A stretch of 58,829 nt of DNA from a virus (taxonomy: Duplodnaviria; Caudoviricetes). The notes below the pieces were generated by a model, which was not told the origin of the DNA, made no database searches, and was given only the letters and a program-made list of their open reading frames with translations. Made by a program: the position numbers and the translations under genes. The stretch is taken from positions 1-58,829 of the IMG/VR virus record IMGVR_UViG_3300037247_000927. One strand, 5' to 3'. Below are positions 1-25,530 of this stretch, piece by piece (the first letter of the stretch is position 1; each line of letters begins with the position of its first letter).

Positions 1-127
1 TTCAGACCGTCAGCAATCCCATCAAATGACTTGTCCTTACCTTGACCGCCTATCGGGTAGAAGTGGCACGGCACAGTTGTTTCTGTGCGGTTCTTGCATA
101 CTCCGCCGATCTGTAAGGTACAGTTTT
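1..127. repeat. 127-bp terminal direct repeat (assembly overlap; circular or circularly permuted genome)
   Basis: 1-127 is identical to 58703-58829; an ORF reads in frame across the join; 127 is a common assembler k-mer length. Confidence 0.95.
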
Positions 128-167
128 GGCCGCGTGCTGATTTGGTTATGGCGTTTTGTGCGCTCAT
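1..167 (-). CDS. 5' part of a DUF1364/YbcO-like Zn-binding protein (continues across the join to 58561)
   Basis: ATG at 167 overlaps the upstream stop (ATGA); MSAQNAITKSARGQNCTLQIGGVCKNRTETTVPCH...AYGCYECHTYID matches the KSARG-C-x7-C...H...CxxCH pattern. Confidence 0.75.
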   Translation of the reverse strand, partial: MSAQNAITKSARGQNCTLQIGGVCKNRTETTVPCHFYPIGGQGKDKSFDGIADGL

Positions 168-391
168 GTTTTTTGAATAAATTCCTGTCGTATTTTTTCC
201 CACCGAGCGATCAGGATTTGAATACGCTTGTTTGCCCTTCTCATCACAGCTACAGTGAATGTATCTCTGATGCTCCTGTAGAAACAGGCATTAAGCTTTT
301 CGGTTTTATTGTCTCCGTCATGTGGCGGCAGGCCATGATACTTTTTCAGTTCTCTGACGCAATTTTTAATAATCTGATTATGACTCTGCAT
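164..391 (-). CDS. Hypothetical protein
   Basis: Tightly packed in the leftward operon; probable start MQSHNQ. Confidence 0.5.
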   Translation of the reverse strand: MQSHNQIIKNCVRELKKYHGLPPHDGDNKTEKLNACFYRSIRDTFTVAVMRRANKRIQILIARWEKIRQEFIQKT

Positions 392-680
392 CGGTGCTTT
401 CCTTTGGCATTTCATCTACCATTGTTTCCATTATTAAATCCAGTCCTTTTTCTTTAGAAAAGCCACCATCACGCACAGCTAACAATTCTGCTCTTATTTG
501 GTGGATCAGATTGCCCAAATGTTCATTTTCATTTTCTAAACCCTCAATTATTTCGGGCGTATCATCACTCATAAATCCGTGACAATCGTTGATCCAATAC
601 TCACGGCGAGGGTGCGGGCATTTGTGATCCTTGTGGTAAGCCTCACAAAATTCGCACCAGACTGAGATTAGGCCAGCCAT
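378..680 (-). CDS. Hypothetical protein with N-terminal Cys/His cluster
   Basis: WCEFCEAYHKDHKC; start overlaps the upstream stop. Confidence 0.6.
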   Translation of the reverse strand: MAGLISVWCEFCEAYHKDHKCPHPRREYWINDCHGFMSDDTPEIIEGLENENEHLGNLIHQIRAELLAVRDGGFSKEKGLDLIMETMVDEMPKESTDAES

Positions 681-1327
681 TATTTATGGCCACTTATCTT
701 GCCGCCACACTCATAGCAGAAATTCGGAAACTCTGTTCCGCGCTCATGCATGACTTCATAGCCGCATTCTGATCGCGCTGTCTCGGTATCCACCTGGGTC
801 CAACCACACATTTTTATATTTTGTTCCGCAGTCTCGATCAGGCGATCATTAAAAGTCTGATGAGGTTCAGCATCTACAGACAACTTCATTGCAACAAAAT
901 CAATGAGTGCCACTGAATCAGCAAGCATGTCTTGCGCCTGCTTTAGACCATCAGGTAGAAAAAGCCTGATTCGCTGAAATGATGTTGGAAGCATGCAAAT
1001 ATTCCCGCCTCCGGGGCCAGTGGATTCCCATGAAATCTCAATACCCTCACGGCCCTGAACTCCACAAGGCAGCTTAACGCTAAGCCTGATACCCTCATGC
1101 TCTACATAGATAAATCTTGCCTGAAAATACCGCTTGAAATATCTATCTTCAATTGCATTCTCAATACCACGAAACTCTTCCGTATAAAAAGGTGATTCTT
1201 TCTGATCATCCATTGCGATATAAAGAATCTTATTTGCTTCGTCGCGCTCTCTTTCCAATTTAGTCACATAGACTTGCGCCCATTTTGGTAGCTTCGAAAT
1301 CTGTTCAGATGTTGGTTGATCTTTCAT
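680..1327 (-). CDS. Hypothetical protein with C-terminal Zn ribbon
   Basis: SECG...NFCYECGGKI; GAGG RBS. Confidence 0.7.
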   Translation of the reverse strand: MKDQPTSEQISKLPKWAQVYVTKLERERDEANKILYIAMDDQKESPFYTEEFRGIENAIEDRYFKRYFQARFIYVEHEGIRLSVKLPCGVQGREGIEISWESTGPGGGNICMLPTSFQRIRLFLPDGLKQAQDMLADSVALIDFVAMKLSVDAEPHQTFNDRLIETAEQNIKMCGWTQVDTETARSECGYEVMHERGTEFPNFCYECGGKISGHK

Positions 1328-1354
1328 TATTTATCCTCAATTAAGAACTCATAT

Positions 1355-1461
1355 GCTGCTGCCTGGGACTGTACTGTTTCCCATCCTTCCGCACACTGCC
1401 TTTGGGGGACCGATGTGGTCATCGGCGGCTAAGCAGGGCATTGGCAGGGCCAAACAGCAGC
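1355..1461 (-). ncRNA. Candidate structured RNA element (multibranch)
   Basis: Intergenic; 12-bp closing stem GCUGCUGUUUGG/CCAGGCAGCAGC with G-U pairs on the minus strand; internal hairpin CCGAUG-ACCA-CAUCGG. Confidence 0.45.
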
Positions 1462-1470
1462 TATCAATTC

Positions 1471-1554
1471 TCAATTACCTCTATGTTTATAAAAATCGGA
1501 GAGAGACAGAACCCTCCGACATTTAATACAGCATTGCGTTACTTGGTTATTCAT
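1471..1554 (-). pseudogene. 27-aa remnant resembling the Zn-ribbon N-terminus of endonuclease VII/HNH-type proteins; contains a terminator-like hairpin
   Basis: MNNQVTQCCIKCRRVLSLSDFYKHRGN*; TCGGAGGG...CTCTCCGA followed by TTTTT. Confidence 0.35.
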
Positions 1555-1590
1555 GCTTTAATATCTCTGCCTTGCATGTAAGTCGTTGAA

Positions 1591-2223
1591 TTAAAAAGGT
1601 ATATCGTCGATGAAATCATCCACAAACTCACTATTGTCACCAGACTGTGCAGGCACAGACGCAGATGCTTCAGCACCAATTGCGCCCCATTCCTGACACT
1701 GCTGAATCTTTTCCTTGATCTTATCAGGAAGGCGATTGAACATGACCTGATCAAAGGCATCAAGGCTGAACAGCAATGGGTTCTCGATAGCCGGAAATGT
1801 TTCGCTTTGTTTCATGGCTGGCGGGAGCGGGACAATCGTTTCAATGTTGGCATATGTGCTGTTCCCAGACGTGTTATGAACTACGTTCAAGTAAGCCTTC
1901 CGAGTTAGCAGCTTACTGAGATCGAATGCAGCAGCGTCTTCGTTACTGTCAAACCTTTTCCCGAACCAGCTCTCTATGGCCTTGCGAAGATAAGAGCCTT
2001 CAAACATTGAGAATGTATAGTTGCTGAACATTTCAAAATGCTTTCCTTCGCTATCCAGGGTTGAGAGATTAAAAATCAAAGTGATCTTGCGGGAAAACTT
2101 TTGAGACTTCTCGTTGAAGTGGCTACCACGATCAAACATGCCAGAACATTGTGCTGGGTGCATACCAGGTTCTACCCTCTCAAAATCTCCACCTTCGCTT
2201 GGTGGTGCTGTAAATGCGTTCAT
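1591..2223 (-). CDS. Phage ssDNA-binding-like protein (NGO0469-like family)
   Basis: EGGDFERVEPGMHPAQC N-terminus; acidic tail ending DDIPF; next to a nuclease gene. Confidence 0.75.
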   Translation of the reverse strand: MNAFTAPPSEGGDFERVEPGMHPAQCSGMFDRGSHFNEKSQKFSRKITLIFNLSTLDSEGKHFEMFSNYTFSMFEGSYLRKAIESWFGKRFDSNEDAAAFDLSKLLTRKAYLNVVHNTSGNSTYANIETIVPLPPAMKQSETFPAIENPLLFSLDAFDQVMFNRLPDKIKEKIQQCQEWGAIGAEASASVPAQSGDNSEFVDDFIDDIPF

Positions 2224-2233
2224 TGACTTCTCC

Positions 2234-2551
2234 TTAAACTAACTTCGGTGGTGTTTGAATTACGCCCGGCTGTAGGCGTTCTTTGAATGGCTTGTTGATC
2301 ATGTCAACAGTAGCCGCGAGTGCTGCCTGGAAATCTTCTACAGATTCTCCTTCGGTACTTCTGATGAAGTAATCTACCAGAGAATCCCTTGCTGAAGGAA
2401 GGTCATAAAAAATCACAGCCTGTCCATTATCGGATGCTACGTTTTCCCAAAGTTCATCCTTGTCAATGAGGGTTTCTGGAATCCTTTTTTGCAGAAACCA
2501 GCCAGCAGGCTTTCCAAGCAGCCTGTATTCTTTGCTGATATTAATAATCAC
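2234..2551 (-). CDS. Hypothetical protein
   Basis: AAGGGAG RBS; abuts the nuclease gene. Confidence 0.65.
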   Translation of the reverse strand: MIINISKEYRLLGKPAGWFLQKRIPETLIDKDELWENVASDNGQAVIFYDLPSARDSLVDYFIRSTEGESVEDFQAALAATVDMINKPFKERLQPGVIQTPPKLV

Positions 2552-3523
2552 TTAACTTACTCCCTTGAGTTTTTTAAATTGTGGACAAAAATCTGCTGCA
2601 TCACAGTAAGCTTCGCAGCGCTTGTTAATTCCAGGCCGGTGATCTACAAACATTTGACTGGAGGTAGCTGCAAGCTCGTTAGCAGCCGCTTCAGGGTCAG
2701 AGCTGTTCTTGTCATCGAACACCCTGGTAGCTCGCTTATTCGTACCCTTCATGACAGCGTACTTAGAACCTGTATACCAGCGCTCTGATTCCGTACATGG
2801 CCGTGGAGTCTCAGCAGTATGCTCTCTGATCTTCTCAGCGATCAGACCGAGGGTTTTTTCCATCGGCCACAATCTTTGCGGGACCACGGCTATTGGTAGG
2901 TTGGGGTAGTTACCTTCTCCGACCTTTGATTTCATCCAGTCCCTGAGAATGGCTACGATCTGCAATGCTTCAATCTCCAAGCCATTTTGAATAGCCAGAT
3001 AAGCATTGATGTTCAGTTGGTGCAGCCAGTCATCATTGTCATTGAAGATGATTGACCAGACGGATGTGGTTTTGTAATCAGATAGCATCTTTTTGCGACC
3101 CTCAATCAGATCAACCTGGCCGCTGATAACATATTCGATTCCATCAACTGTGACAGTGCAAAAGTAGCGCTCTTCTGGGATCAGAATCTCAGGGTCAACA
3201 ACACCGGCAACAATCCGATTTGTGTTGTTGAATTTGATCGTTGCCCGTTCAATCAAAAGGTGAACTGCGGTCCCGAACATTGCCCAGATCATGTCAGAAA
3301 CATCCTGAACAATTTCATCAGCGTGCTTTATCTTCAAAGCCCTCATCTGTGGAGGCTTCAATAATTCAGTAGCGCTGAAGTCAGACTTGCCTTTCGAGTA
3401 TTCATCCATTGCAATCGCAAGCGCAATAGGTATTGGCAAGTCGTATTTGTTCGTCATTCCCCCAATCAATCTGGGATCGTCAGACTTTTTTAACTGGTTA
3501 CTTTGTGGTTGTGTCAGTGACAT
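2552..3523 (-). CDS. PD-(D/E)xK (Cas4/RecB-like) exonuclease
   Basis: SATEL...GTAVH...E...SGQVD...DYKT...QLNINAY; four C-terminal Cys (possible Fe-S cluster). Confidence 0.85.
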   Translation of the reverse strand: MSLTQPQSNQLKKSDDPRLIGGMTNKYDLPIPIALAIAMDEYSKGKSDFSATELLKPPQMRALKIKHADEIVQDVSDMIWAMFGTAVHLLIERATIKFNNTNRIVAGVVDPEILIPEERYFCTVTVDGIEYVISGQVDLIEGRKKMLSDYKTTSVWSIIFNDNDDWLHQLNINAYLAIQNGLEIEALQIVAILRDWMKSKVGEGNYPNLPIAVVPQRLWPMEKTLGLIAEKIREHTAETPRPCTESERWYTGSKYAVMKGTNKRATRVFDDKNSSDPEAAANELAATSSQMFVDHRPGINKRCEAYCDAADFCPQFKKLKGVS

Positions 3524-3781
3524 TTATTTCTCCTGCAATCCTCTTGGGATAAATTCATTCAAAGTTTCAATCAGTGATGTAGCATGTCGAGCCACACCCT
3601 GATTCCGGTAAATATTTTTGATAGAAGTGTTTGCGGTGACATTTGCGGTTTTTGCCCTGTCACAGTTTTCTTTTATAAGGTTCACAAGCACCAATATTTC
3701 TGGATTCATGCAAAGCTTTCTGAGCGCATATTCTTCTTCTTTTTTCAGCTCTATTAATCTTTCTTTTTCAGTTCGAAGCAT
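3524..3781 (-). CDS. Small helical protein resembling the gene usually found right after podoviral portal genes
   Basis: IYRNQGVARHATSLIETL (R-x-QG-x-A-R motif); probable ATG at 3781. Confidence 0.45.
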   Translation of the reverse strand: MLRTEKERLIELKKEEEYALRKLCMNPEILVLVNLIKENCDRAKTANVTANTSIKNIYRNQGVARHATSLIETLNEFIPRGLQEK

Positions 3782-3929
3782 TTTGTTTTCCAGATTTAAT
3801 TGCAGCCATGTCACGTTCGCACATGCCCATACAGTCGTGGCCCCGGTATTTCAATCTCTCGTACCAGCAGCCAAGGTTATGCCCCAGGATGTAAGTCGTC
3901 TGGATGAATTTCATGAAGGCGTTATTCAT
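3768..3929 (-). CDS. Hypothetical 53-aa protein (not in the ORF track)
   Basis: MNNAFMKFIQ...NASN*; overlaps both neighbours in operon fashion. Confidence 0.45.
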   Translation of the reverse strand: MNNAFMKFIQTTYILGHNLGCWYERLKYRGHDCMGMCERDMAAIKSGKQNASN

Positions 3930-4140
3930 CTTCAATTACATCGCAGCCAATGAAAGTGCAGACTCCAATTTCAGTTTCGTTGCAGCCATGAAGGATATTG
4001 GATGACGCTAGAATCTGATAACCATCATCCCTACTATTTATTATTTCTGGTGATGAGCAGAGCGTTGGCGCTACCTCGATAGTGGCTTGGCATCTGACGC
4101 ATTTATATAAAACTTTAGCCATCACATATGATTTTCCCAT
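3922..4140 (-). CDS. Small Zn-finger-like protein
   Basis: YKCVRC...HGC; TGATG coupling. Confidence 0.6.
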   Translation of the reverse strand: MGKSYVMAKVLYKCVRCQATIEVAPTLCSSPEIINSRDDGYQILASSNILHGCNETEIGVCTFIGCDVIEDE

Positions 4141-4691
4141 CAGGTTTTCTCCAGCAAAGCGCCATCAGCGCCTTCAACAGTTAACCCCATGAAATTTCCA
4201 CTCATAATTTGTTTAATCATCTTGTCAATATCTGGCCCTTGAAGCGTGGTAAGTAACCATCCGCCATCAGGTAGAGGATAGTGATAAGTATCATCTACGC
4301 CATACCCAAACGATGTGGATACATAATCCATGCGCATATATACAGACGACTTGCAAGAGAACTGTGAGTGAGGTATTCCAGCATGATCTGCTGCACGCGC
4401 AAGCTCTTCACAAGGGTTGTAATCAACGTCAAGCCAGGGGTTTAGATATTCTGCACCATCACGCATGCTCTTGATCCTTTCCGAGAGCAGCTTCCTGAAA
4501 ACTTCAATCCGATCATTGATATTGTTAATATCTGATTTATCTCTCAATATCCTCGTCATCGCAAGCGCATGACTCATGCCGCCATGAACTGAATCATCAC
4601 CGTTGTCAAAAACAGGTTCGAGTAATTTCCTACACCAAAGCTCTACTGCCCGATCTATAATTAAATCTGGTATTCGCTCTCGTTTAATCAT
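4140..4691 (-). CDS. Hypothetical protein
   Basis: 183-aa ORF, ATGA-coupled to the helicase gene. Confidence 0.75.
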   Translation of the reverse strand: MIKRERIPDLIIDRAVELWCRKLLEPVFDNGDDSVHGGMSHALAMTRILRDKSDINNINDRIEVFRKLLSERIKSMRDGAEYLNPWLDVDYNPCEELARAADHAGIPHSQFSCKSSVYMRMDYVSTSFGYGVDDTYHYPLPDGGWLLTTLQGPDIDKMIKQIMSGNFMGLTVEGADGALLEKT

Positions 4692-6139
4692 GTTTTTTCC
4701 AAATAGTTCAGAGTTTTCTTGGCTCTGGTGATGGCAACGTAATCAATATTGCGTTCTTCTTGCTCACGCCATGAAGCGCCTTTCTTGGAAGACTTATGCC
4801 AAGGTTTGTTTTCCATAATGAAAACATTGTCAGCCTCAAGCCCTTTGGCTCTGTGGACTGTAGACAAGTTGACGAAATCCTGACGGGCCTCACCAAACAT
4901 ACCTTCAATTTCATTGATGATCTTGTTGACGCTCTCGCCCGGCATTTCTTTCAGGAAAACCCTGATCGTGTTGGCTTTATCGCGTACATGGTCAGCACTT
5001 CTGTATTCATCCCTGTTGATGTGATGAAGGACTCTTTTCTCTTCCCATTTACCAAGCTTCTTTTCAAGCTGGTTGGCGTTGTCGGCCTCGAAGCCCCTGA
5101 TTAACTTAACCAGACCTTCGCCAATATTCCTGCCAACAATCGTTGCTGGAATCTTCATTCTTATGAGCCTGTAAGCCATCCCCAACAAAGGTGCGTTCGC
5201 CCTGGATAAAATCATATCGTTGGGGGCAAAGGTTTTCTCTGTGATGTTCTTGATGTAATTGATTTCACCTTCAATTGCCCAGGGTGCAGCTTCTATTTCA
5301 GGAACAATCACCTTTGCTCTTTCAACAATTTTCTTGGGGCAACGATATGAGATTGAAAGCGGAAGCATGTCACAGTCGAACATGTATCCGAGCTTTGACA
5401 TTGAAGCGCTTGAGGCCCCTCTCCAGCCGTAGATGGCTTGTTTTGAGTCACCCACACAGACCAAGCGGCCATTGTCAACCAGAACACGGTTCAGAAGCTC
5501 ATGCTGTGATGCGTTTAAATCCTGTGCTTCATCAACAAATATAAAATCATGTTGCGGAAACCTCATTTCATTCATCAATGGCAGGTAGATCATGTCATCG
5601 AAGTCAATCATCTTGGATTTGCTCAGTGACATTTCCAGCATCAATATGGCCAGCTCGATAAGCCTTCCGTCTTCCATGACATCTGGGGATATTTCATAAC
5701 GCTTGATCAGGTTAATAAATTCAATCGTGGGAGAGTCGGGACCAAGTAAATGAGACTTTGCAATCTGCACCAACTGCCTGATTTGCGCCTTGTCTTTGTA
5801 CTCAGCCCAGGAAATTTTACCTTCTTCTTTTGCCTGGCTGAGTAGAATTCTTTGCTTGCTGCTTTCTGTATGGAAAGGACCGCCACTCAGCAGCGCACGA
5901 TAGCCAAGGCTATGCATAGTCCGGCTCTCAAACATTGGTGGCAACCTTGCTCCAAGCTCAGTAGCAATTGACTTGTTGAAGGCAAGGAACAAAGGCCTGT
6001 GAGCTATCCCGTCGAGCCTGTTTGCAGCCTCTACAATGGACACGGTTTTTCCTGAGCCAGCCACGCTTTCAACAACTGCACTGTTTTCAGAATTTTGAAC
6101 GAAATCAAACAGATCATTTTGATATTTTGAATATTCCAT
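4688..6139 (-). CDS. UvrD/Rep-like SF1 helicase
   Basis: SVAGSGKT, VDEAQD, VGDSKQAIYGWRGA, STVHRAKGLE, YVAITRAK. Confidence 0.95.
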   Translation of the reverse strand: MEYSKYQNDLFDFVQNSENSAVVESVAGSGKTVSIVEAANRLDGIAHRPLFLAFNKSIATELGARLPPMFESRTMHSLGYRALLSGGPFHTESSKQRILLSQAKEEGKISWAEYKDKAQIRQLVQIAKSHLLGPDSPTIEFINLIKRYEISPDVMEDGRLIELAILMLEMSLSKSKMIDFDDMIYLPLMNEMRFPQHDFIFVDEAQDLNASQHELLNRVLVDNGRLVCVGDSKQAIYGWRGASSASMSKLGYMFDCDMLPLSISYRCPKKIVERAKVIVPEIEAAPWAIEGEINYIKNITEKTFAPNDMILSRANAPLLGMAYRLIRMKIPATIVGRNIGEGLVKLIRGFEADNANQLEKKLGKWEEKRVLHHINRDEYRSADHVRDKANTIRVFLKEMPGESVNKIINEIEGMFGEARQDFVNLSTVHRAKGLEADNVFIMENKPWHKSSKKGASWREQEERNIDYVAITRAKKTLNYLEKT

Positions 6140-6174
6140 AATTTACCTCTTATCCAATTTTGTTAAATCACCGC

Positions 6175-6717
6175 TCATGGTAACGTGACTCCCATTTCTG
6201 TAGCCGCCCATGCAGCAGTGCGATGTATTAAAGACTGGTACTCTTCCACATTCAGTTTCGATGTATCACCCGTATAGCGATAAATCCTGAAGTTCTTTCC
6301 ATTTGCATCTGTCTTCTTGCCGAACGCACGGTCAACAAGCGTGCTGATAATCGTAATGCAGTCAGCCCTTTCTTCTTTTGGCATTGTCGTTCTGGAGTGC
6401 TTGAGAAGCTTTTGTAGCGCCTCTCTTATGGAGTCAAGCTCACTGCTATTATGCTCTGAGTGTACGGGTAGCCACTCTTCATGCTCACCAAAGTATTCGA
6501 TCTTGGCCAGATGTCTTATCTGGTGGAAATCTATACCAGTGCTGTTGGCTATGAACCTGAGCATGCCATGCCAGTGGTTTTCCATTTCGCGTGTGCGGTT
6601 GATTTTGAATGGACTGAACTCGAACATCCATTGCTTGAGAGGATCAAGGTCCTTCAGGAAAGCAATGGCCGTGTCGATGTGATCCTGGCAGCTTGAGAAT
6701 ATTTTTTTAGTTGCCAT
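6175..6717 (-). CDS. NinB/YbcN-like recombination accessory protein
   Basis: RTREMENHWHGML...DTSKLNVEEYQSLI...WAATEMGVTLP. Confidence 0.7.
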   Translation of the reverse strand: MATKKIFSSCQDHIDTAIAFLKDLDPLKQWMFEFSPFKINRTREMENHWHGMLRFIANSTGIDFHQIRHLAKIEYFGEHEEWLPVHSEHNSSELDSIREALQKLLKHSRTTMPKEERADCITIISTLVDRAFGKKTDANGKNFRIYRYTGDTSKLNVEEYQSLIHRTAAWAATEMGVTLP

Positions 6718-7153
6718 TACTCATACCTTCAAGCAGAGATAGAACTTCAGACATGGAACAACAAATATGATCAAACATTTTCACCATTAATTCTGGTTCG
6801 CCGTTCTCTAGTAAAAGTATTGTGGTTTTGCACTGTCCTGCCGCCCAACCCATTTCCATGCTGGCTGACCTTCCAAATGGCTGAACACCAACAAACACAT
6901 CTGCCCATAACATTGCGGAATAATCATGTTTATAACCTTGCATTGCAATAGGATGATCAAGACATTCCCGATAGCGCTCAATGCTCCATTCCTGCCATGC
7001 TGGATCAATATCCGACCAGTGAAAGCCGCTGTTGCCAGGCGCTGGATTGCGGAAGTCATATACTTCATGTCCCGCATTTCTCAGCTTACTAACTACTGAT
7101 GGCTGAATACTATTCCGCCAACTGGTAGCTACATATATTTTCTTAGTTGCCAT
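6707..7153 (-). CDS. Nucleoside 2-deoxyribosyltransferase-like (flavodoxin-fold) protein
   Basis: KIYVATSWRN...GHEVYDF...WADVFV...GRSASMEMGWA with the catalytic-position Glu retained. Confidence 0.75.
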   Translation of the reverse strand: MATKKIYVATSWRNSIQPSVVSKLRNAGHEVYDFRNPAPGNSGFHWSDIDPAWQEWSIERYRECLDHPIAMQGYKHDYSAMLWADVFVGVQPFGRSASMEMGWAAGQCKTTILLLENGEPELMVKMFDHICCSMSEVLSLLEGMSNGN

Positions 7154-7156
7154 GAC

Positions 7157-7492
7157 TTATCCCTTCCACGTTGGAATTGAAACTTTCTCACTCCACCATG
7201 CAGCAACCAAGTCCCAATCCTCATCATGTTTGGCGGTTCCGACAATGGAAAATGGATTGTCCGGCCCATCATCTTCAACAGTCAGCTTCATGAGGATCAC
7301 ATAATCACCATATGCATAGATCATCCCGCCACAATCATCCATTTCACTGTCGCCCATTATCACAACCCAATAGTGGCCGTTTTCTGTTGGTGGCGAGTCT
7401 TCTACATTAATCCATTCGCCCGCACCTTTTCTCATCACCAGTCCCTTCAACCAATTGAGTATGGATTTAATTCTTGGTAAATGATTATTCAT
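7157..7492 (-). CDS. DUF551-like protein
   Basis: EWINVEDSPP...VAAWW; likely start at 7492 after GGATAAGAG. Confidence 0.55.
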   Translation of the reverse strand: MNNHLPRIKSILNWLKGLVMRKGAGEWINVEDSPPTENGHYWVVIMGDSEMDDCGGMIYAYGDYVILMKLTVEDDGPDNPFSIVGTAKHDEDWDLVAAWWSEKVSIPTWKG

Positions 7493-7587
7493 TGCTCTCT
7501 TATCCATACGGTGTAATAATGTTTGAGTACAGTCTACTCTCTCAAATGATAATTGCAAGGGGTTTCGTGCAAAAAGTTGTTTTCTTA

Positions 7588-7785
7588 ATGCGGCTATGCG
7601 ACTTGAAGAAATATTATGTTTCGAACTCAAGCGCTGCGAGGCATGCCCAGGTACACAGGAACACTCTTTATATCGGGCCTGTCATTAAAGGACAGCAGTA
7701 TCTTCGAGAGAATTTGAGCCTGAGATTCGAGAAGCTGACGAATGGCAAGCTCAAGACACATACATTTATTCACCAAAAAGATTGA
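7588..7785 (+). CDS. Cro-like HTH regulator
   Basis: MRLCDLKKYYVSNSSAARHAQVHRNTLY...FEKLTNGKLK; divergent from the leftward block; nearby inverted repeat TTTGAG...CTCAAA (7522-7546). Confidence 0.7.
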   Translation: MRLCDLKKYYVSNSSAARHAQVHRNTLYIGPVIKGQQYLRENLSLRFEKLTNGKLKTHTFIHQKD

Positions 7786-7810
7786 CATCTGAATATTCAT
7801 CAGCGAGAAT
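7782..7810 (+). promoter_or_regulatory. Sigma70-type promoter for the candidate sRNA
   Basis: TTGACA-N17-GAGAAT. Confidence 0.65.
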
Positions 7811-7816
7811 GCGCTT

Positions 7817-7934
7817 GTGCTGAAGTCCTGCCGGATGGATACACAGTTGATGGATGTCCGCAAAGCCTCTTATCCGAGTTCAGTTTGCATTCGTCAACGA
7901 AGAAGGCCCTTGAGAAATCAGGGGCTTTTCTTTT
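7817..7934 (+). ncRNA. Candidate ~118-nt antisense sRNA
   Basis: Own promoter and terminator, no credible ORF; GCUGAA/UUCAGU stem; contains GCCUCUUAUCCGAGUUCA. Confidence 0.6.
7905..7934 (+). terminator. Rho-independent terminator
   Basis: GGCCCUUGA-GAAA-UCAGGGGCU followed by a U-rich tail; the G-U pairs form only on the + strand. Confidence 0.85.
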
Positions 7935-7959
7935 GCCTGCAACTTTATTTCAAAATCAT

Positions 7960-7989
7960 TTGACAAGCGATTCTGTTTTGTGCAAGACT
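7960..7989 (+). promoter_or_regulatory. Promoter of the rightward replication operon
   Basis: TTGACA-N18-AAGACT with extended -10 TGn. Confidence 0.5.
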
Positions 7990-8060
7990 GCAATTCGGGT
8001 TGCTGCTTATCCGTTACAACCGTTCGGCGGCAACACAACATTAATGAACTCGGATGCGTT

Positions 8061-8348
8061 ATGAAGAATCTCAAAATCATACCCTCCTTCCCACCTACGG
8101 CTGGGCTACGTTCGTTATTGTTAACCGACAAGCCGTATGAAGGGTTTCTTGCACAGCGGCAGTCCAAGAGCGATCTCGCACTATCAGAACTCCCAGAAGG
8201 CATACAAATGCATCTGGCTGCTCTCTGGTGTCTGATTTTCGGCAGCGATGCAAGACGGTCTTTACGGATCGAATGCCGACAACCCACAAGCGTAAACGAT
8301 GTGAGTCCTATGTATGGCGAAGGGTTCGAGAGCAAGCTAGCTTTCTAA
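8061..8348 (+). CDS. Possible leader ORF (may be non-coding structured RNA instead)
   Basis: ATG 5 nt after the sRNA-complementary site; no recognisable motif and no clear SD. Confidence 0.3.
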   Translation: MKNLKIIPSFPPTAGLRSLLLTDKPYEGFLAQRQSKSDLALSELPEGIQMHLAALWCLIFGSDARRSLRIECRQPTSVNDVSPMYGEGFESKLAF

Positions 8349-8456
8349 TTTTCTGTACTTCAGGTAATAGCTAGGACTTCTGATTGTCAGGAGCTTAGGT
8401 GAACTTTGCCTGATGACTCTGCTATTCAAGAGCAACCCTCTCTGGACCGCAGGGAC

Positions 8457-8520
8457 TATAAAGGTAATATAGATATATAACTATATAATATATAAGGTAA
8501 TAGTATGAAATACTATTTGC
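8457..8520. other. AT-rich tract with direct and inverted repeats; candidate replication origin
   Basis: Nearly pure A/T tract, AAGGTAATA twice, palindrome AATAGTAT-GAA-ATACTATT (8499-8517). Confidence 0.35.
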
Positions 8521-8542
8521 AAATTTTCATCAGGAGAATCAA

Positions 8543-9409
8543 ATGAAAAGACTCTGTATTTATCATGGTAATTGTGCTGATGGGTTTGCTGCTGCATACG
8601 CAATGCAGGTTGCATTTGATCCAAGCACTATTGAATTTCATGCTGGCGTTTACGGAGACGAACCACCAGATGTAACTAACCGCCATGTTTACCTTGTAGA
8701 TTTCTCTTACAAGCGTGATGTGCTAATTGAAATGGCAGCGAAGGCTGTGAGTATTTTGATTCTTGATCATCACCAAAGCGCTGAGGCTGAGCTTGTCGAT
8801 TTGCCAGGTAACGTCGAAACAGTATTTGATATGACCCGGAGTGGCGCAGTAATAACTTGGGATTATTTTCTGCCTGCCTTAAAAATACCGCCATTGTTTT
8901 TCCACATAATGGACCGTGACTTGTGGAGATTTAAGCTTCCGGCCACGCGAGAAATAATGGCATGTCTCAGCTCGTACCCTTATGACTTTGATGTTTGGTC
9001 CGACCTTATGGATTTCGATATGGAGTTTTTGCGTAGAGGTGGCGAATCAATCAATCGTAAGCAACTAAAAGATATTAACGAATTGATCGAGGCAAATGCG
9101 CACCGCATAGTCATTGCAGGCCATGACGTTCCCGGCCTGAACGGGCCTTACATGTGGGCTTCAGACGCTTGTCATATCATGGCCAAGGGTGAGCCGTTTG
9201 CTGCATGCTATTGCGATACAGGGGAGGGCAGAGTATTCCAGCTCCGTTCTGCTGATGGTGGCATGAATGTGGCTGAGATTGCAAAACTCTTTGGTGGTGG
9301 CGGCCATGAACATGCTGCTGGCTTCAGTGTGCCGCACCATACAGGTCTTATTTTTATTGAACCACCGATTGAATCAACAGAAATATTAGGAGAAACAAAT
9401 GTCACATAA
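8543..9409 (+). CDS. DHH/DHHA1 phosphoesterase (nanoRNase-like)
   Basis: YHGNCADG, VDFS, LDHH, DRDLW, GGGGHEHAAGF. Confidence 0.92.
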   Translation: MKRLCIYHGNCADGFAAAYAMQVAFDPSTIEFHAGVYGDEPPDVTNRHVYLVDFSYKRDVLIEMAAKAVSILILDHHQSAEAELVDLPGNVETVFDMTRSGAVITWDYFLPALKIPPLFFHIMDRDLWRFKLPATREIMACLSSYPYDFDVWSDLMDFDMEFLRRGGESINRKQLKDINELIEANAHRIVIAGHDVPGLNGPYMWASDACHIMAKGEPFAACYCDTGEGRVFQLRSADGGMNVAEIAKLFGGGGHEHAAGFSVPHHTGLIFIEPPIESTEILGETNVT

Positions 9410-10820
9410 AATCATTAAACTTACAGCCGAGAACATCAAGAAGCTCAGGGCTGTTGAGATCACGCCAGATGGCGATGTCGTTAAAATATCAGGTGCAAAT
9501 TCTGCTGGCAAAACCAGTGTACTTGATTCAATTTTGTTCGCGCTTGCAGGCAAAAATGCCATACCTGATAAACCCATTCGTGAGGGCGAGGATTCCGCGT
9601 TTGTTGAATTGAACCTGGGTGATCTGATCGTCAAGCGCCGGTTCACTCCTGGCGGCTCTACGTTATCAGTTGAGAATGCTGAGGGTGCGGTCTTCAAATC
9701 ACCACAATCCATGCTCGATGACATGATGGGTAAGCTCTCATTTGATCCTATGAAGTTTTTACAGCTCAGCAGGAAAGAACAGTTCGATGAGTTGTTGACC
9801 CTGGTTGATGTCAAGATTGATTTGTCTGAGCTGGATGAAAAGCGGCAGTCTCTTTATGAAGAACGCACTATTGTTAACCGTGAAGGCAAGGCAGTAAAGA
9901 CGCGACTGGAAGCGATACCAAAGATCGAGAATGCTCCCGATGCTGATATTGATATCGTTGTGCTGGCTGAAGAGATATCACAGGCCGAAGCTGGAAACCG
10001 CGAGCTTGATAATGTGCTGGTTAAGATTGGAGGCGATAAAGTCTCAAAGCAGCGCTTTAGTGGTGAGCTTGACGTTTTTCGTCGTGGTATAGATTCTCTT
10101 GAAGAAGAAACAAAAGACAAAGAAAAAATTGACATTGAGAAAATGCGGACAGAGCTTAATGAAACAGTTGCCAAGTTAACTCAGCAGATATCTGAGGCTG
10201 AAAACAGCAACAACGAGCTACAAACCAATCTTTCTAGTCTTGATAGCAGAAAAGCAGCGGCCTTGGACCTTGAGGTTCGAATCAATGCGCTGGACCAAAG
10301 GATTAACCAGTTCGAAAAAGAGACTGGTAGCAAGGAAAAGGTTGATACCACTGAGCTGGTAATAAAGCTCAATAATGCAAACAAAATCAATAATGATTAT
10401 CGTGCAAGCCAAGAGCGTATCGCTATTGTAGACGCTGTGAAGGTGAAGATTGTCGAAAGCAATAACCTGACCAGCGAGATTGAAAAGATCGACGAGAAGA
10501 AGAGTGAGGCCCTTTCAGTGGTTAAGTTCCCTGTTGATGGTCTGAGCCTGGGTGATGGTGAAATTACTTACAATGATATCCCGCTTGATCAGGCCTCAAT
10601 GTCAGAGCAGATGCGTGTTTCAATCGGGATTGCGATGGCTGCAAATCCAGATATCCGCGTAATCCGGATCACTGATGCCAGCCTGTTTGATTCATCGACT
10701 ATGAAGATGGTTGAAGAAATGGCAAAAACTGATGACTACCAGATATGGATGGAGATCGTCGATGAATCTGGCAAGGTTGGTATTTACATTGAAGACGGCT
10801 CAGTTTCAAAGGTGAACTGA
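9399..10820 (+). CDS. SMC/SbcC/RecF-like ABC ATPase with central coiled coil
   Basis: GANSAGKTS Walker A, long coiled coil, degenerate signature ASMSEQ, IRITDASLFD Walker B/D-loop region. Confidence 0.88.
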   Translation: MSHKIIKLTAENIKKLRAVEITPDGDVVKISGANSAGKTSVLDSILFALAGKNAIPDKPIREGEDSAFVELNLGDLIVKRRFTPGGSTLSVENAEGAVFKSPQSMLDDMMGKLSFDPMKFLQLSRKEQFDELLTLVDVKIDLSELDEKRQSLYEERTIVNREGKAVKTRLEAIPKIENAPDADIDIVVLAEEISQAEAGNRELDNVLVKIGGDKVSKQRFSGELDVFRRGIDSLEEETKDKEKIDIEKMRTELNETVAKLTQQISEAENSNNELQTNLSSLDSRKAAALDLEVRINALDQRINQFEKETGSKEKVDTTELVIKLNNANKINNDYRASQERIAIVDAVKVKIVESNNLTSEIEKIDEKKSEALSVVKFPVDGLSLGDGEITYNDIPLDQASMSEQMRVSIGIAMAANPDIRVIRITDASLFDSSTMKMVEEMAKTDDYQIWMEIVDESGKVGIYIEDGSVSKVN

Positions 10821-16343: not shown

Positions 16344-16377
16344 AAAAAAGGCCGGAGACTTTTGCCCCGGCCTTTTT
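16344..16377. terminator. Bidirectional intrinsic terminator between convergent operons
   Basis: AAAAAA-GGCCGG...CCGGCC-TTTTT. Confidence 0.9.
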
Positions 16378-16774: not shown

Positions 16775-16840
16775 TTACTTATCCTCTTATAGTGATTAAA
16801 CATTAGAGAGCATTAAATATACCAACAAACCCCTGCGCTC

Positions 16841-19763: not shown

Positions 19764-22094
19764 CTATTCCCTGTCAATAATTACCAACTTTGATGCGGTA
19801 CCGGTCCCGCTCTGCTTGAATGAGTCTTCCGGAAGGTCGATTACTTCACCACCAACAGAATCAAACCAGTTTCTAAACTCAACTGCCTTTTTATCCTGTC
19901 TGAAAAATGGGCCGGGACTCATAATAGAAACCATCCGGCCACCTATTTTCAAGAATGAATAAGCAAGGCAAACATGCGTAATGTCTTGTAGGTTTTCAAA
20001 TGGTGGATTCATCACAATGCGGTCAAACTTAAAGCTGTTGAATTGCTCTGTGAAATCAACCGGTCTTGCGTCATAACCTTTTGCCTGGAGAATTTCACAC
20101 AATGAATGATTGATTTCATAGACCACGATCAGATTATCCATGTCCAGGGCCTCGATACCGTCAACAATTGCACCGCTTCCGGCTGAAGGTTCGAGCACGC
20201 TTTGCCCTGTTGTAATGTCGGCATAGTCAAGCATCAGATCAACAACGGGTTTTGGTGTCGGGAAGTATCCCGGTATTTTGTTGAAGCGTAGAGCCTCAGT
20301 CATTCGATCAAGATTTTCCTTGTGTTGCAGTTTTTCATCTTTGCCGGAAAGAATGTCCCACAACGCCAGGGCTTTTGGTGACGCGCTTTCGTGAGGCTTG
20401 CCGGTCCCGATTGAATATTGATGCCAGCCATTAGGGACAGATTCGAAACCTTCACCAAGCAAATCATAGACAGCCTTTTTAGACTTCAATCCGGCTAATA
20501 TTTCCGGCACTGTTCCTGCTTCGTGTAGATCGGCCAAAGCATTCAAAGCTTGTTGTGTTCTTTCCAGCTTGTCAGCTTCCGAGCGTGCGCTGGCGGCTTC
20601 TTTTTGCCGCTTTGGTGTGTTGGTCAGCCTGTCGCCTCGTTTGTTATCTATGGCGCTCTGAAGTTTGTCTGACATCTTGCGGAATCGCTCAGGTAATCCG
20701 GCTGGCGGTGTTGGTGGTGGTGGTTCATTATCAGGCGGACCCGTAAAGGATCGGGCTTGATCTTCAGATTTAAACGCAAAGCCTCCAGGAGTTTGGCCCC
20801 ACTTGCGAGAATACCAGCCGCCGTTATCTTTGGCGCGGTCTCTTTCGCTAGTGAATTCATCACGCTCCAACCTTGACAGCGGAACACATATAAAGAAGTC
20901 ATAACCGCGTTTTTCGTGGTAATGCTGCTCGATTGTGTAGCCGTGTGCGCTTGGTTTGGTGTTGGTGGTAGGTGTTGACCGTTCGACGCGCTCAGGAACG
21001 CACCAGCGGCCAACAGGGACGGACTTCGCACCGTGATACAGTTCAATTTTGTTAATTGACCAGCCGCTAGAGTCTCTGTGCCCATCTTTCAGATAATAAC
21101 CAGCACCAAAGCTGTATTTTTCGCGGTGTTCAATCTTTGATTCTTCAATCTTCCAATAAAACGGGATCAAGGTATCGTCAAACTTGATTGAGTAAGGTGC
21201 ATTTTTGCCATCAATCCATGCCTTCCCCTCGACTGGATCGGGATCACCTTTTTTATCAATCCATGCTTGTGCTTGGCCCGTCGTGGTAAAGTCTTTGCAT
21301 TCTGGTAATAAATCGGAATGCCACACTGAACCGCATCCTTTATGATAATAACTTCCATTGCTATGGAAATCTTCACCGATCATTACACGCGGAGTAAAGC
21401 AACCTTTGCCGGGTCCAAGGTGTTCCGTCTCAGGTGCATTTAATGCAGCCTTGCGCATTTCTGGGAATAGATCGCGGGTATGTGTTGACCATGCCAGAAT
21501 TAAAACTTCTTTGGTTGTGTGGCCGTGGTAATCGGTCATGATATCGGAATCATTAACATGCAATTCCGCCACAATTACAGCTTTAGCGCCTGGTGGCATT
21601 TTTTCCGTGGCCACTGCTTCAAATTCTGATCGGATTTGATCGGATTTGATACGCGCATTCTCGCGGGTTATTGCTTCCTTTTGGTGATGCTCTACCATCT
21701 GGACCACTAAAACCTTCATTTCCGCCATTGTCTTACTTGGTTTTAATTCATATTTCTGCGTCCAGGGTAAAACGATTTGTTCTGATAAATCTATAGATCG
21801 CGTGTTGTCTTCGTAAATGACATCAATGCTTTTATTGATCTTTTCCATTCCGGCACCGAGCATGTAGACATTGCCGGAAGACTCATTAACTGCGGATATC
21901 CAGCCGTTTTTATCGTACATGCTCCGGACTGGCTGACCAATATAAAAGCCTTCGCGGGTTTGTGTGTGGCTGTTCCAGTCATGCCCACATTTTGAACATT
22001 CTCTGATCAGTACCGTTTCAGGGCTAAATTGTTCATGCCCGCATTCAGGGCATTGATAAGCGTTAAAAAGTGCGTTTTGTGCTGTCTGATTCAT
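19764..22094 (-). CDS. Multidomain (polyvalent-type) protein with C-terminal amino-methyltransferase
   Basis: N-terminal CPEC..CSKC; YFPTP, VLEPSAGSGAI, IVMNPPF, SFKQSGT. Confidence 0.88.
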   Translation of the reverse strand: MNQTAQNALFNAYQCPECGHEQFSPETVLIRECSKCGHDWNSHTQTREGFYIGQPVRSMYDKNGWISAVNESSGNVYMLGAGMEKINKSIDVIYEDNTRSIDLSEQIVLPWTQKYELKPSKTMAEMKVLVVQMVEHHQKEAITRENARIKSDQIRSEFEAVATEKMPPGAKAVIVAELHVNDSDIMTDYHGHTTKEVLILAWSTHTRDLFPEMRKAALNAPETEHLGPGKGCFTPRVMIGEDFHSNGSYYHKGCGSVWHSDLLPECKDFTTTGQAQAWIDKKGDPDPVEGKAWIDGKNAPYSIKFDDTLIPFYWKIEESKIEHREKYSFGAGYYLKDGHRDSSGWSINKIELYHGAKSVPVGRWCVPERVERSTPTTNTKPSAHGYTIEQHYHEKRGYDFFICVPLSRLERDEFTSERDRAKDNGGWYSRKWGQTPGGFAFKSEDQARSFTGPPDNEPPPPTPPAGLPERFRKMSDKLQSAIDNKRGDRLTNTPKRQKEAASARSEADKLERTQQALNALADLHEAGTVPEILAGLKSKKAVYDLLGEGFESVPNGWHQYSIGTGKPHESASPKALALWDILSGKDEKLQHKENLDRMTEALRFNKIPGYFPTPKPVVDLMLDYADITTGQSVLEPSAGSGAIVDGIEALDMDNLIVVYEINHSLCEILQAKGYDARPVDFTEQFNSFKFDRIVMNPPFENLQDITHVCLAYSFLKIGGRMVSIMSPGPFFRQDKKAVEFRNWFDSVGGEVIDLPEDSFKQSGTGTASKLVIIDRE

Positions 22095-22123
22095 TGTTAA
22101 AACCTCTTATCCTTGTGGCGGTG

Positions 22124-22608: not shown

Positions 22609-22620
22609 AATATGATCCTC

Positions 22621-22851
22621 TTATCCGTTAATATTGTCGTTTAAATTTTTTAAGCAGCCCGTTATATCGGACCTAAAACAAAAACTTGTCGAGATACTCG
22701 ATATAGGGTGGCCTTTTATGTTTATCACTGAACCGTTAATTGATTTTATTTTGTGCCAGTAGCTATAGCCATCATCATCTTCAAGATAATACTTTTTATC
22801 TTTGGTCATGATGTGGCCTTTTTCTATTAAAATATCCTTTTCTGTGTACAT
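22621..22851 (-). CDS. Hypothetical early protein
   Basis: GGATGAGAGG RBS 8 nt upstream. Confidence 0.7.
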   Translation of the reverse strand: MYTEKDILIEKGHIMTKDKKYYLEDDDGYSYWHKIKSINGSVINIKGHPISSISTSFCFRSDITGCLKNLNDNING

Positions 22852-22873
22852 CTTAAATGCCTCTCATCCGTTT

Positions 22874-24256: not shown

Positions 24257-24273
24257 TTAAAACCTCTCACCCT

Positions 24274-24381: not shown

Positions 24382-24406
24382 TATTTGTCCTCTTATCCTT
24401 TGGTAA

Positions 24407-24643: not shown

Positions 24644-24688
24644 TCTGTTACCTCTTATCCAGTGGTTAATATGATCTAAGTACCCTTG

Positions 24689-24716
24689 ATTATAGACCGA
24701 TCTGTGTATATGTCAA
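24689..24716 (-). promoter_or_regulatory. Strong sigma70 early promoter
   Basis: TTGACA-N16-TATAAT on the minus strand. Confidence 0.85.
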
Positions 24717-24989
24717 CATTATTGTTTGACTAATATCAAGCGAACAACTAAAGGCGGACCCGTAAACCATTACCCATAACGCTGTGCAGTTGATCGTTGC
24801 AAGGCGGAACCAATAACCCTATAACCCTAATAGACCACCTACAATATAGTAGATATAAGATCAATTATTAACAGATCAGTCTATAAAAAGTAGTTGAGTT
24901 AACCACAAACCTCTCAAATCACCCCCAAATTACCCATAATAAGCCCTATTTAGCCATAATGACCATTAAAGGGTGTTAATAGTGGATCA

Positions 24990-25530
24990 ATGGGTGGGAA
25001 GGAATGACCAAAATAGTGAAAGTAACATAGCTCATATAATCAATAAGTTAGTTAACTTGTTCCACCGGTAGTATAAAAGCCGATGGGTGGGAAGAAAACA
25101 TGCAAAAGGGTGGGAAAAAACCTACCCCTATTTTGTGAAATATGCATGATCGTGGTCTATATGAATCAATGACTTGCACGTATGACCATGAACGATACCC
25201 GCTTGACCGTCTACATTTGAATGTGTGGGTAGTATCGTGAGTGCATCAGAGAGTCAGCAGCCAGGGTTAACATAAATATCCAGGGTTCAGTCAGTAGTCA
25301 CAGCAATCATTGTCATAGCGCCATTACAGCAAGTCAGGAGATCAACACCCCCCCTATGGACCAAGTGATTAGTGAGACCCGCTATTGATATTTACGTAGT
25401 ACCCCAGACACTCATGGTTTCGCTATATTATTTTCCTCTTGAAATTCTTGTGCACCATGGGATTATTGACGTGGTTAAAAGGTATTGAGGCTTTATTGGC
25501 TGTAGAAAGGGGTCTTTGTGCACCATGGCT
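24990..25530. other. Non-coding region with two IHF consensus sites and short repeats; candidate packaging/genome-end region
   Basis: AATCAATAAGTTA (25038-25050), AATCAATGACTTG (25164-25176); GGGTGGGAA three times; TTGTGCACCATGG twice; upstream of TerL. Confidence 0.55.

Follow-up and report, generated by a model that had tools for sequence, protein, structure and literature searches.

The sar RNA of phage P22 and the OOP RNA of phage lambda are short cis-antisense transcripts with their own promoter and terminator, which pair with phage mRNA (sar covering the ribosome-binding site, RBS) and act on the overlapping gene only. The c4 RNA of phages P1 and P7 is cut from the transcript of the operon that it controls and has one target just downstream. 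Here we describe a candidate small RNA (sRNA) of ~118 nt on the plus strand of the virus record IMGVR_UViG_3300037247_000927 (Duplodnaviria; Caudoviricetes), whose whole length of 58,829 nt was analysed and is referred to as the window. The predicted loop of this RNA is complementary to a 10-base sequence, GGATAAGAGG, which recurs at the ribosome-binding sites of a dispersed set of phage genes and is called the RBS tag below. In its working the candidate is closest to c4, being a phage RNA whose loop bases are also predicted to pair round ribosome-binding sites, but it would have its own promoter and terminator and eight predicted targets, which belong to three transcription units on both strands, at distances of up to 17 kb. 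The combination that defines c4-type RNAs, processing from the controlled operon together with a target directly downstream, was not found at this locus. With respect to sar and OOP, the candidate differs in that the overlapping minus strand holds no credible gene and the complementarity recurs at distant start regions.

Other described systems share some of these features. The complementary bases of c4 are thought to be borne in loops and to pair round the RBS, blocking translation (PMC12197685). In the streptococcal csRNAs, anti-Shine-Dalgarno (anti-SD) and anti-AUG bases lie in an unpaired region between two stem-loops (PMC3091779); they resemble the candidate in that one unpaired seed is complementary to start regions and is predicted to control many mRNAs, but their seeds match generic SD and AUG sequences, whereas the seed of the candidate would read a 10-base tag (GGAUAA followed by GAGG) of a gene subset, with its predicted targets in its own genome. 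In phage T4, the strong sites of RegB have a long consensus round the SD sequence and RegA represses ~30 mRNAs (PMC3014915). These T4 regulators are similar in acting post-transcriptionally, via start regions, on a group of early phage mRNAs, but RegB and RegA are proteins, whereas an RNA would read the tag here, and no sequence relation is claimed. Additionally, trans-acting sRNAs that act on host mRNAs are known from lambda (LPR1/PreS; bioRxiv 10.1101/2024.10.31.621285) and from the Qin prophage, whose DicF is also a phage-borne regulator of host genes (PMC12197685), whereas the predicted targets of the candidate are phage genes. A phage sRNA controlling a dispersed phage regulon via a shared RBS tag was not found described in open-access papers and preprints.

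Results

The candidate unit (Table 1) begins with a sigma-70-like promoter, with TTGACA at 7782-7787 and GAGAAT at 7805-7810 separated by 17 nt, and ends with a GAAA-loop terminator, and both elements lie where the sequence-only reading that started this work had placed them. Ten sites in the genome agree with the promoter consensus at 10 or more of 12 positions, and the sole better one, a 12/12 site at 24716 on the minus strand, stands directly before the first gene bearing the tag. On the minus strand the terminator hairpin is followed by CTTCTTCGTT, which makes a poor tail. Since all genes upstream (1-7492) run leftward, a plus-strand terminator at this position serves only a short plus-strand transcript. 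The terminator does not have the longest stem of the genome, but only one of the 58 listed terminator-like sites has more pairs, with 14 at 57851-57816 (-) against 12 here. The unit holds no credible open reading frame (ORF), in agreement with what had been proposed. No family match was obtained for the plus-strand ORF 7817-7963, which extends across the terminator, so that a gene at 7835/7850-7963 was set aside, and the 78-aa ORF of the minus strand has no homologue (see below).

The predicted structure is specific to the plus strand. The fold of 7817-7936 has a minimum free energy (MFE) of -44.4 kcal/mol and a z score of -3.74, with none of 200 shuffled sequences equally stable, compared with a z score of +0.14 for the reverse complement, and a sliding window at 7820-7939 gave z scores of -2.60 on the plus strand versus +0.88 on the minus strand. 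The seed hairpin alone reached -18.3 kcal/mol (z -3.42; 0/200 shuffles equally stable), and the G-U pairs of its lower stem become C-A mismatches on the opposite strand. A buried seed had been named beforehand as grounds for giving up the sRNA, but the hexaloop UUAUCC (7870-7875) is predicted to be open, with an unpaired probability of 0.99-1.00. The values for 7866-7869 are 0.06-0.54, the CCUC part of seed 1 lying in the weak, bulged upper stem, and opening the whole seed would cost ~4.5 kcal/mol. This predicted layout, with the seed at the top of a hairpin, is that of antisense RNAs which pair first through their loop. Thus modelled, the locus has two features of trans-acting base-pairing sRNAs, namely its own promoter and intrinsic terminator round a short non-coding unit, and an accessible seed that could pair with several mRNAs from other loci. 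Rfam families, among them c4 if the library has it, gave no gathering-score match to the candidate or anywhere else in the window, and the best sub-threshold match (E up to 10, 7400-8200) was ctRNA_p42d, with 22.4 bits against a gathering score of 50, confined to the terminator hairpin (7901-7936).

GGAUGGAUA stands near the 5' end of the candidate RNA (7833-7841), and 7831-7841, read as sense, is similar to the start region of the gene at 7492 (10/11 positions). The GGAUA of this 5' part, which the MFE structure leaves single-stranded, might base-pair with the UAUCC of the RNA's own loop, as an internal target mimic or a pseudoknot. A CsrA-type GGA sponge was also considered and set aside; the 5' half has three GGAU, one of which is within a stem.

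The tag GGATAAGAGG has six exact copies in the genome, all on the minus strand (6146, 7866, 22103, 22617, 24389 and 24651), and ties as its commonest 10-mer. With up to one mismatch allowed there are ten matches, versus 2.60 ± 1.57 in shuffled genomes, and none of 100 shuffles reached ten, so that the count against shuffled sequence suggested as a check in the sequence-only reading came out in favour of the motif. Five of the six exact copies are ribosome-binding sites, with 6, 8, 8, 7 and 7 nt to the ATG, which agrees with the earlier statement that the motif stands 6-8 nt before the ATG of five leftward genes. The copy at 7866-7875, which on the plus strand reads CCTCTTATCC and is the exact complement of the tag as had been claimed, had rightly been singled out as the only one without a properly spaced start: it has no start codon at a workable distance, and the only TTG, 2 nt on, opens a 78-aa ORF. 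Two variant copies, GGATGAGAGG at 22860 (8 nt before the ATG) and GGGTGAGAGG at 24263 (6 nt before the ATG), depart from the 10-mer only by A-to-G changes and keep all 10 pairs with the seed via G-U pairs, and partial copies at 7496-7505, 7156-7162 and 16778-16789 are also within start regions; both sets had been described before and were found again as described. The flanks of the GGATAAGAGG copies are dissimilar, which indicates that the 10-mer itself recurs, as opposed to being carried along in a longer duplicated segment. In addition, the shorter GGATAAG has 13 minus-strand copies versus 3.6 expected, 8 of them at start regions, and GGAU follows the SD bases in many other genes of the phage. 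Two other readings of the motif were set aside. DnaA boxes were considered for the TTATCC at 7500, 7870 and 8007 (+), but the exact 10-mer recurs at distant start regions; a phage-specific promoter motif fits neither the spacing of 6-8 nt to the ATG nor the lack of conservation outside the 10-mer.

Pairing was calculated against a set of 78 start regions (a crude list of 92 gene calls, minus 20 dubious ones, plus 6 small or missed genes), 76 of which gave an energy value, the net energy being the hybrid energy plus the opening energies of both RNAs. Such an accessibility-based comparison with the phage start regions had been proposed as a check, and it set eight of the 76 apart, at -6.4 to -12.9 kcal/mol (Table 1), the next best reaching -4.8 kcal/mol; among 700 control windows of 100 nt away from starts, only one reached -6 kcal/mol or below. 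Contiguous helices of at least 9 bp were also listed for 7858-7890 against both genome strands, and, the RNA's own antisense strand aside, the longest helices that include the loop are all at start regions. When accessibility was ignored, duplexfold produced long, spurious duplexes with the whole hairpin and was dropped. Seven of the eight predicted targets are encoded on the strand opposite to the sRNA, 1.7 to 17 kb away. The weak value for the first leftward gene is due to a structured target site.

The eighth predicted target was not part of the earlier reading. Bases 7871-7882, which overlap seed 1, pair with 8045-8056 on the plus strand, before ORF 8061, over 12 bp made of 11 Watson-Crick pairs (11 nt, 100% complementary) and one G-U pair. 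Among 3000 random 33-mers from the genome, 45 have at least 11 Watson-Crick pairs to any of the 78 start regions. This match is unexplained by the shared RBS motif. A third CTTATCC, oriented like the others, was seen at 8004-8015 (minus copy 8006-8012) within the ORF 8061 leader, in the loop of a predicted 7-bp hairpin whose fold is no better than shuffles (z -0.34). Furthermore, an 11-bp helix with 3 G-U pairs joins 7828-7838 to 8020-8030 in both the MFE and the centroid structure of a 264-nt fold, which may be a second contact site or chance.

Table 1. Predicted parts of the candidate sRNA unit and start regions predicted to pair with it. Net energies include the opening of both RNAs.
Feature	Position	Strand	Remarks
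Sigma-70-like promoter, TTGACA-N17-GAGAAT	7782..7810	+	10/12 consensus positions; A-rich stretch just upstream
Candidate sRNA, ~118 nt	7817..7934	+	5' end inferred from -10 hexamer, 3' end from U-tract
Seed hairpin	7846..7898	+	12-bp lower stem with 3 G-U, weak bulged upper stem, apical hexaloop
Seed 1, CCUCUUAUCC	7866..7875	+	Exact complement of RBS 10-mer; DNA reads CCTCTTATCC
Seed 2, UAUCCGAGUUCA	7871..7882	+	Overlaps seed 1; complementary to start region of ORF 8061 (+)
Intrinsic terminator	7902..7934	+	Hairpin 7902-7929, 12-pair stem, GAAA loop, then CTTTTG (U-rich tail)
Predicted target: 61-aa first gene behind 12/12 promoter at 24716	24650..24661	-	Net -8.3 kcal/mol
Predicted target: start region of 35-aa hydrophobic peptide	24389..24398	-	Net -7.2 kcal/mol
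Predicted target, GGGUGAGAGGUUUU: 40-aa hydrophobic peptide	24259..24272	-	14 bp, 3 G-U; net -6.4 kcal/mol
Predicted target, CGGAUGAGAGGC: 76-aa ORF	22859..22870	-	12 bp, 1 G-U; net -12.9 kcal/mol, best of all
Predicted target: 76-aa ORF (phrog_18334, function unknown)	22617..22627	-	11 bp, 0 G-U; net -10.4 kcal/mol
Predicted target: 776-aa protein, C-terminal DNA methyltransferase domain	22099..22112	-	14 bp, 1 G-U; net -10.0 kcal/mol
Predicted target: UvrD-type helicase	6145..6157	-	13 bp, 2 G-U; net -12.4 kcal/mol
Predicted target: putative 95-aa ORF 8061-8348	8045..8056	+	-16 to -5 before ATG, covers its GGAU; net -9.0 kcal/mol
Weak, doubtful target, UGGAUAAGAG: 111-aa first leftward gene	7497..7506	-	10 bp, 1 G-U; net -3.0 kcal/mol

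The coding capacity of the short ORFs round the unit was assessed by means of a codon-usage ratio, for which true gene segments and shadow ORFs served as calibration and which replaced an order-2 Markov coding score that failed to separate short genes from shadow ORFs. Per codon, 113 true 80-codon segments had a mean of 0.205 and a minimum of -0.033, six small comparison genes scored 0.020 to 0.190, and 128 shadow ORFs had a mean of -0.036. The 78-aa minus-strand ORF (7627-7863) scored -0.081, under all 113 true segments and the six small genes. A search of 1.84 billion representative proteins returned no match to it, nor did Pfam or PHROGs, and no minus-strand promoter of at least 9/12 was found between 7876 and 8479. 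Because of these missing matches, the poor codon score, a TTG only 2 nt from the GAGG and the lack of such a promoter, a translated minus-strand gene at 7866 is unlikely. Use of this copy as the RBS of a translated minus-strand ORF is what the sequence-only reading had named as its refutation, and the objection is weakened, though not removed, by the absent homologues, the codon score and the TTG spacing. A second minus-strand ORF, 7880-8335, was set aside as a gene; it would encode a protein rich in Arg, Ser and Cys and scores -0.127 per codon. On the plus strand, ORF 8061-8348 reads protein-like and outscores its minus-strand shadow (-0.039 versus -0.127 per codon).

Searches for relatives gave no locus with which the unit could be compared. 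A blastn search of 6000-9500 against 50,697 phage records gave no match, and one of 7780-7940 (E up to 1) gave 24 records, none covering 80% or more of the query; the best 10 of the 24 match only at the terminator end (query 115-161), none reaching the seed. These short matches to 7894-7940 come from Arthrobacter, Stenotrophomonas, Microbacterium and Pseudomonas phages, and the best 10 are 41-48 nt long and 84-89% identical, with a best E of 8e-5; they probably reflect a generic terminator likeness. In IMG/VR, no relative was confirmed with the 110-aa, 95-aa, DHH or terminase protein as query. The nucleoside deoxyribosyltransferase gene led to 80 loci, which are not syntenic: none has the intergenic region and none has more than one other matching gene. 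Scans for exact matches to the seed region found none in either viral or metagenome contigs. The best relative of the helicase among 5.8 billion proteins is 42% identical, which makes an alignable relative unlikely.

The IMG/VR record is a complete genome with a 127-bp direct terminal repeat, and the sole sequencing run listed for the phage DNA, which may be that of the source sample, is one of DNA from a marine sediment metagenome, no RNA run being listed. Leftward genes occupy 1-7492 and 16.4-24.6 kb and rightward genes 8.5-16.3 and 25.7-55.3 kb, and the candidate sRNA locus sits in the divergent gap bounded by the start of the leftward gene at 7492 and by ORF 8061, the first rightward one. 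The 60 ORFs that were scanned against PHROGs, ~87% of whose families have no known function, gave named matches to replication, recombination and virion functions. These are a UvrD-type helicase, NinB/Orf, a nucleoside deoxyribosyltransferase, a DHH phosphoesterase, an SbcC-like ATPase and an exonuclease, to which are added a topoisomerase-like protein, a primase/helicase, two resolvases and the C-terminal DNA methyltransferase domain. Further matches are the large terminase, a portal or adaptor, a tail fibre, an internal virion protein and a peptide deformylase. No integrase or repressor family was among the matches of these 60 ORFs, and to this extent the earlier remark that the phage has no obvious CI stands.

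Several features of the layout were seen besides. The 776-aa protein at 19764-22094 (-) matches DNA methyltransferase families only by residues ~590-775, and its first ~590 residues match nothing. The ~1 kb at 7493-8542 has little or no convincing coding capacity in a genome that is otherwise densely packed: all of its ORFs other than 8061-8348 have lower codon scores or are without start signals, and given that ORF 8061 scores below the true-gene minimum, this stretch may be mostly non-coding control DNA. Within it, 8300-8460 (+), after ORF 8061, is a second strand-specific structured stretch (sliding-window z scores of -2.81 and -2.35 versus -0.30 and +0.96 on the minus strand; z -2.09 for the 161-nt fold), which may be a 3' UTR (untranslated region) element or another small RNA. 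At 8440-8520, just before the DHH operon, there is an AT-rich block (GC ~0.29-0.35) with repeated TATATAA and AAGGTAATA-like words, which may be an origin or a promoter cluster. Promoter-like sites at 7960-7970 (+) and 16879-16869 (-) have the 11-mer TTGACAAGCGA in common, which may be a regulatory word heading two operons. The 720-bp gap at 24720-25440, where the early and structural operons diverge, has ATGGGTGGGAAG repeated (24990, 25083) as well as AAGGGTGGGAAAAAACCTACCC, which is related to it, and at 25108-25127 a hairpin resembling a terminator. Lastly, AAAAAAGGCCGG...CCCGGCCTTTTT at 16345-16376, between convergent operons, looks like a two-way terminator.

Discussion

Our analysis suggests that 7817-7934 could encode a trans-acting small RNA, which host RNA polymerase would transcribe from its own sigma-70-type promoter to its own intrinsic terminator. 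The hexaloop UUAUCC, atop the weak, bulged upper stem, would start a kissing contact with the GGAUAA of phage mRNA start regions, and the contact would spread into the upper stem to give 10-14 bp covering the SD bases (GAGG), blocking ribosome binding. The proposed targets are the first three cistrons behind the strongest promoter of the genome, the two 76-aa ORFs, the methyltransferase protein and the UvrD-type helicase, and the neighbouring plus-strand ORF 8061 would also be targeted, via the overlapping bases 7871-7882. A block of the first cistrons might in turn silence the downstream genes by polarity, which is inference only. The steps differ in strength. That a plus-strand small RNA is made is probable; its repression of the tagged start regions in trans is a serious possibility that falls a little short of probable, and we place the full proposal of a trans-acting sRNA with its own promoter and terminator, pairing by its loop at start regions, at the same tentative level. 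The trans-acting sRNA put forward in the sequence-only reading is partly supported: the plus-strand-specific fold, the open hexaloop and the eight separated start regions fit it, and one plus-strand target has been added.

Two of the alternatives take the copy at 7866 for a present or past ribosome-binding site. The plus-strand RNA may be real and pair over its full length with a leftward leader (7935-7800), thereby covering the present or former RBS at 7866-7875 of a small leftward ORF, in the manner of P22 sar, with the other pairings as a side effect. The 7866 copy is indeed on the same strand as all the RBS copies, the 78-aa ORF is open from the TTG behind it, a leftward promoter candidate is found at 7984 and the antisense overlap is perfect by construction. 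Nevertheless, the TTG stands at 2 nt where the five working copies have 6-8 nt, the ORF has neither protein or family matches nor a gene-like codon score, the stretch from 7876 to 8479 lacks a minus-strand promoter of at least 9/12, and the match to 8045-8056 on the plus strand would be left unexplained, so that we regard this account as rather unlikely. A leftward leader or relic RBS at 7866 is in general a weakened but still possible rival, and even then the plus-strand unit would probably be a real RNA, acting in cis on the leader. Alternatively, the 10-mer may be a favoured extended RBS or translation enhancer, or a tag for a RegB-like protein (RNA GGAUAAGAGG), with 7866 as an orphan of gene loss and the plus-strand elements unrelated or non-functional. 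The general enrichment of GGATAAG at leftward start regions and the frequent GGAU after the SD bases of other genes favour this view, and pairing with the usual 16S 3' end would not require the 5' GGAUAA part. T4 RegB is described as reading a lengthy consensus in the start regions of early mRNAs (PMC3014915). For this view to hold, however, four features must coincide within 150 nt, namely a 10/12 promoter, a 12-pair terminator, a hairpin with a z score of -3.4 and the motif exactly in its apical loop. The structure is moreover specific to one strand, and no RegA- or RegB-like family was matched by the 60 ORFs scanned against PHROGs, most families of which, as said, have no assigned function. 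We likewise consider this explanation improbable, with about the weight of the preceding one.

The remaining alternative sees in the unit a 5' leader or attenuator of ORF 8061: transcripts begun at 7782 would end at 7934 or continue beyond it, and in the read-through RNA 7871-7882 would pair in cis with 8045-8056 and hide the RBS. It draws on the presence of two complementary segments on one strand, 162 nt apart, and on the long-range helix 7828-7838/8020-8030 in the 264-nt fold. That same fold, however, leaves the seed hairpin intact and shows no pairing between 7871-7882 and 8045-8056; at 7960, between the terminator and ORF 8061, there is a promoter-like site of its own, TTGACA-18-AAGACT with a TG; no alternative antiterminator pairing was found on reading the sequence, and the exact match to the dispersed 10-mer would have no explanation. 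This makes a leader the least convincing of the accounts, and a very improbable one.

The trans-acting sRNA has its own weak points. Sequence, predicted structure and complementarity are there to be read, but transcription, binding, repression and timing are all inferred, from a single genome and by prediction. The -10 hexamer GAGAAT is imperfect, and the sigma-70 consensus may not be that of the host. The enrichment of pairing at start regions largely follows from the shared motif and would be the same if 7866 were an old minus-strand RBS, behind which the 78-aa ORF is open at once from its TTG and before which a weak leftward promoter (TGCACA-18-AATGAT, 8/12, at 7984) can be drawn. A-to-G substitutions account for three of the four base changes in the variant copies; they keep the pairing but also keep the SD region purine-rich, and as evidence they are weak. 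In addition, the match to 8045-8056 was found after the fact, and the codon score of ORF 8061, -0.039, is just under the minimum of the true segments, -0.033.

Known antisense RNAs of phages have one neighbouring or overlapping target, and known trans-acting sRNAs of phages mostly hit host genes. If the proposal is true, one sRNA together with a shared RBS tag would let a phage control a dispersed set of its own genes, and a seed that reads the tag of a gene subset would distinguish one class of phage genes from another. We put forward, as a possible though rather speculative picture, that a probably virulent phage marks some of its genes, among them the head of its strongest operon, a helicase and a methyltransferase protein, through a 10-base extension of the SD sequence, which the loop of one master sRNA reads while overlapping bases read the start region of a neighbouring gene on the other strand, giving a class-specific, post-transcriptional shut-off that would be the RNA counterpart of T4 RegA and RegB. 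If it holds, an RNA layer would be added to the temporal programme of lytic phages, and the tag and its reader would offer a simple and portable design for synthetic control of translation.

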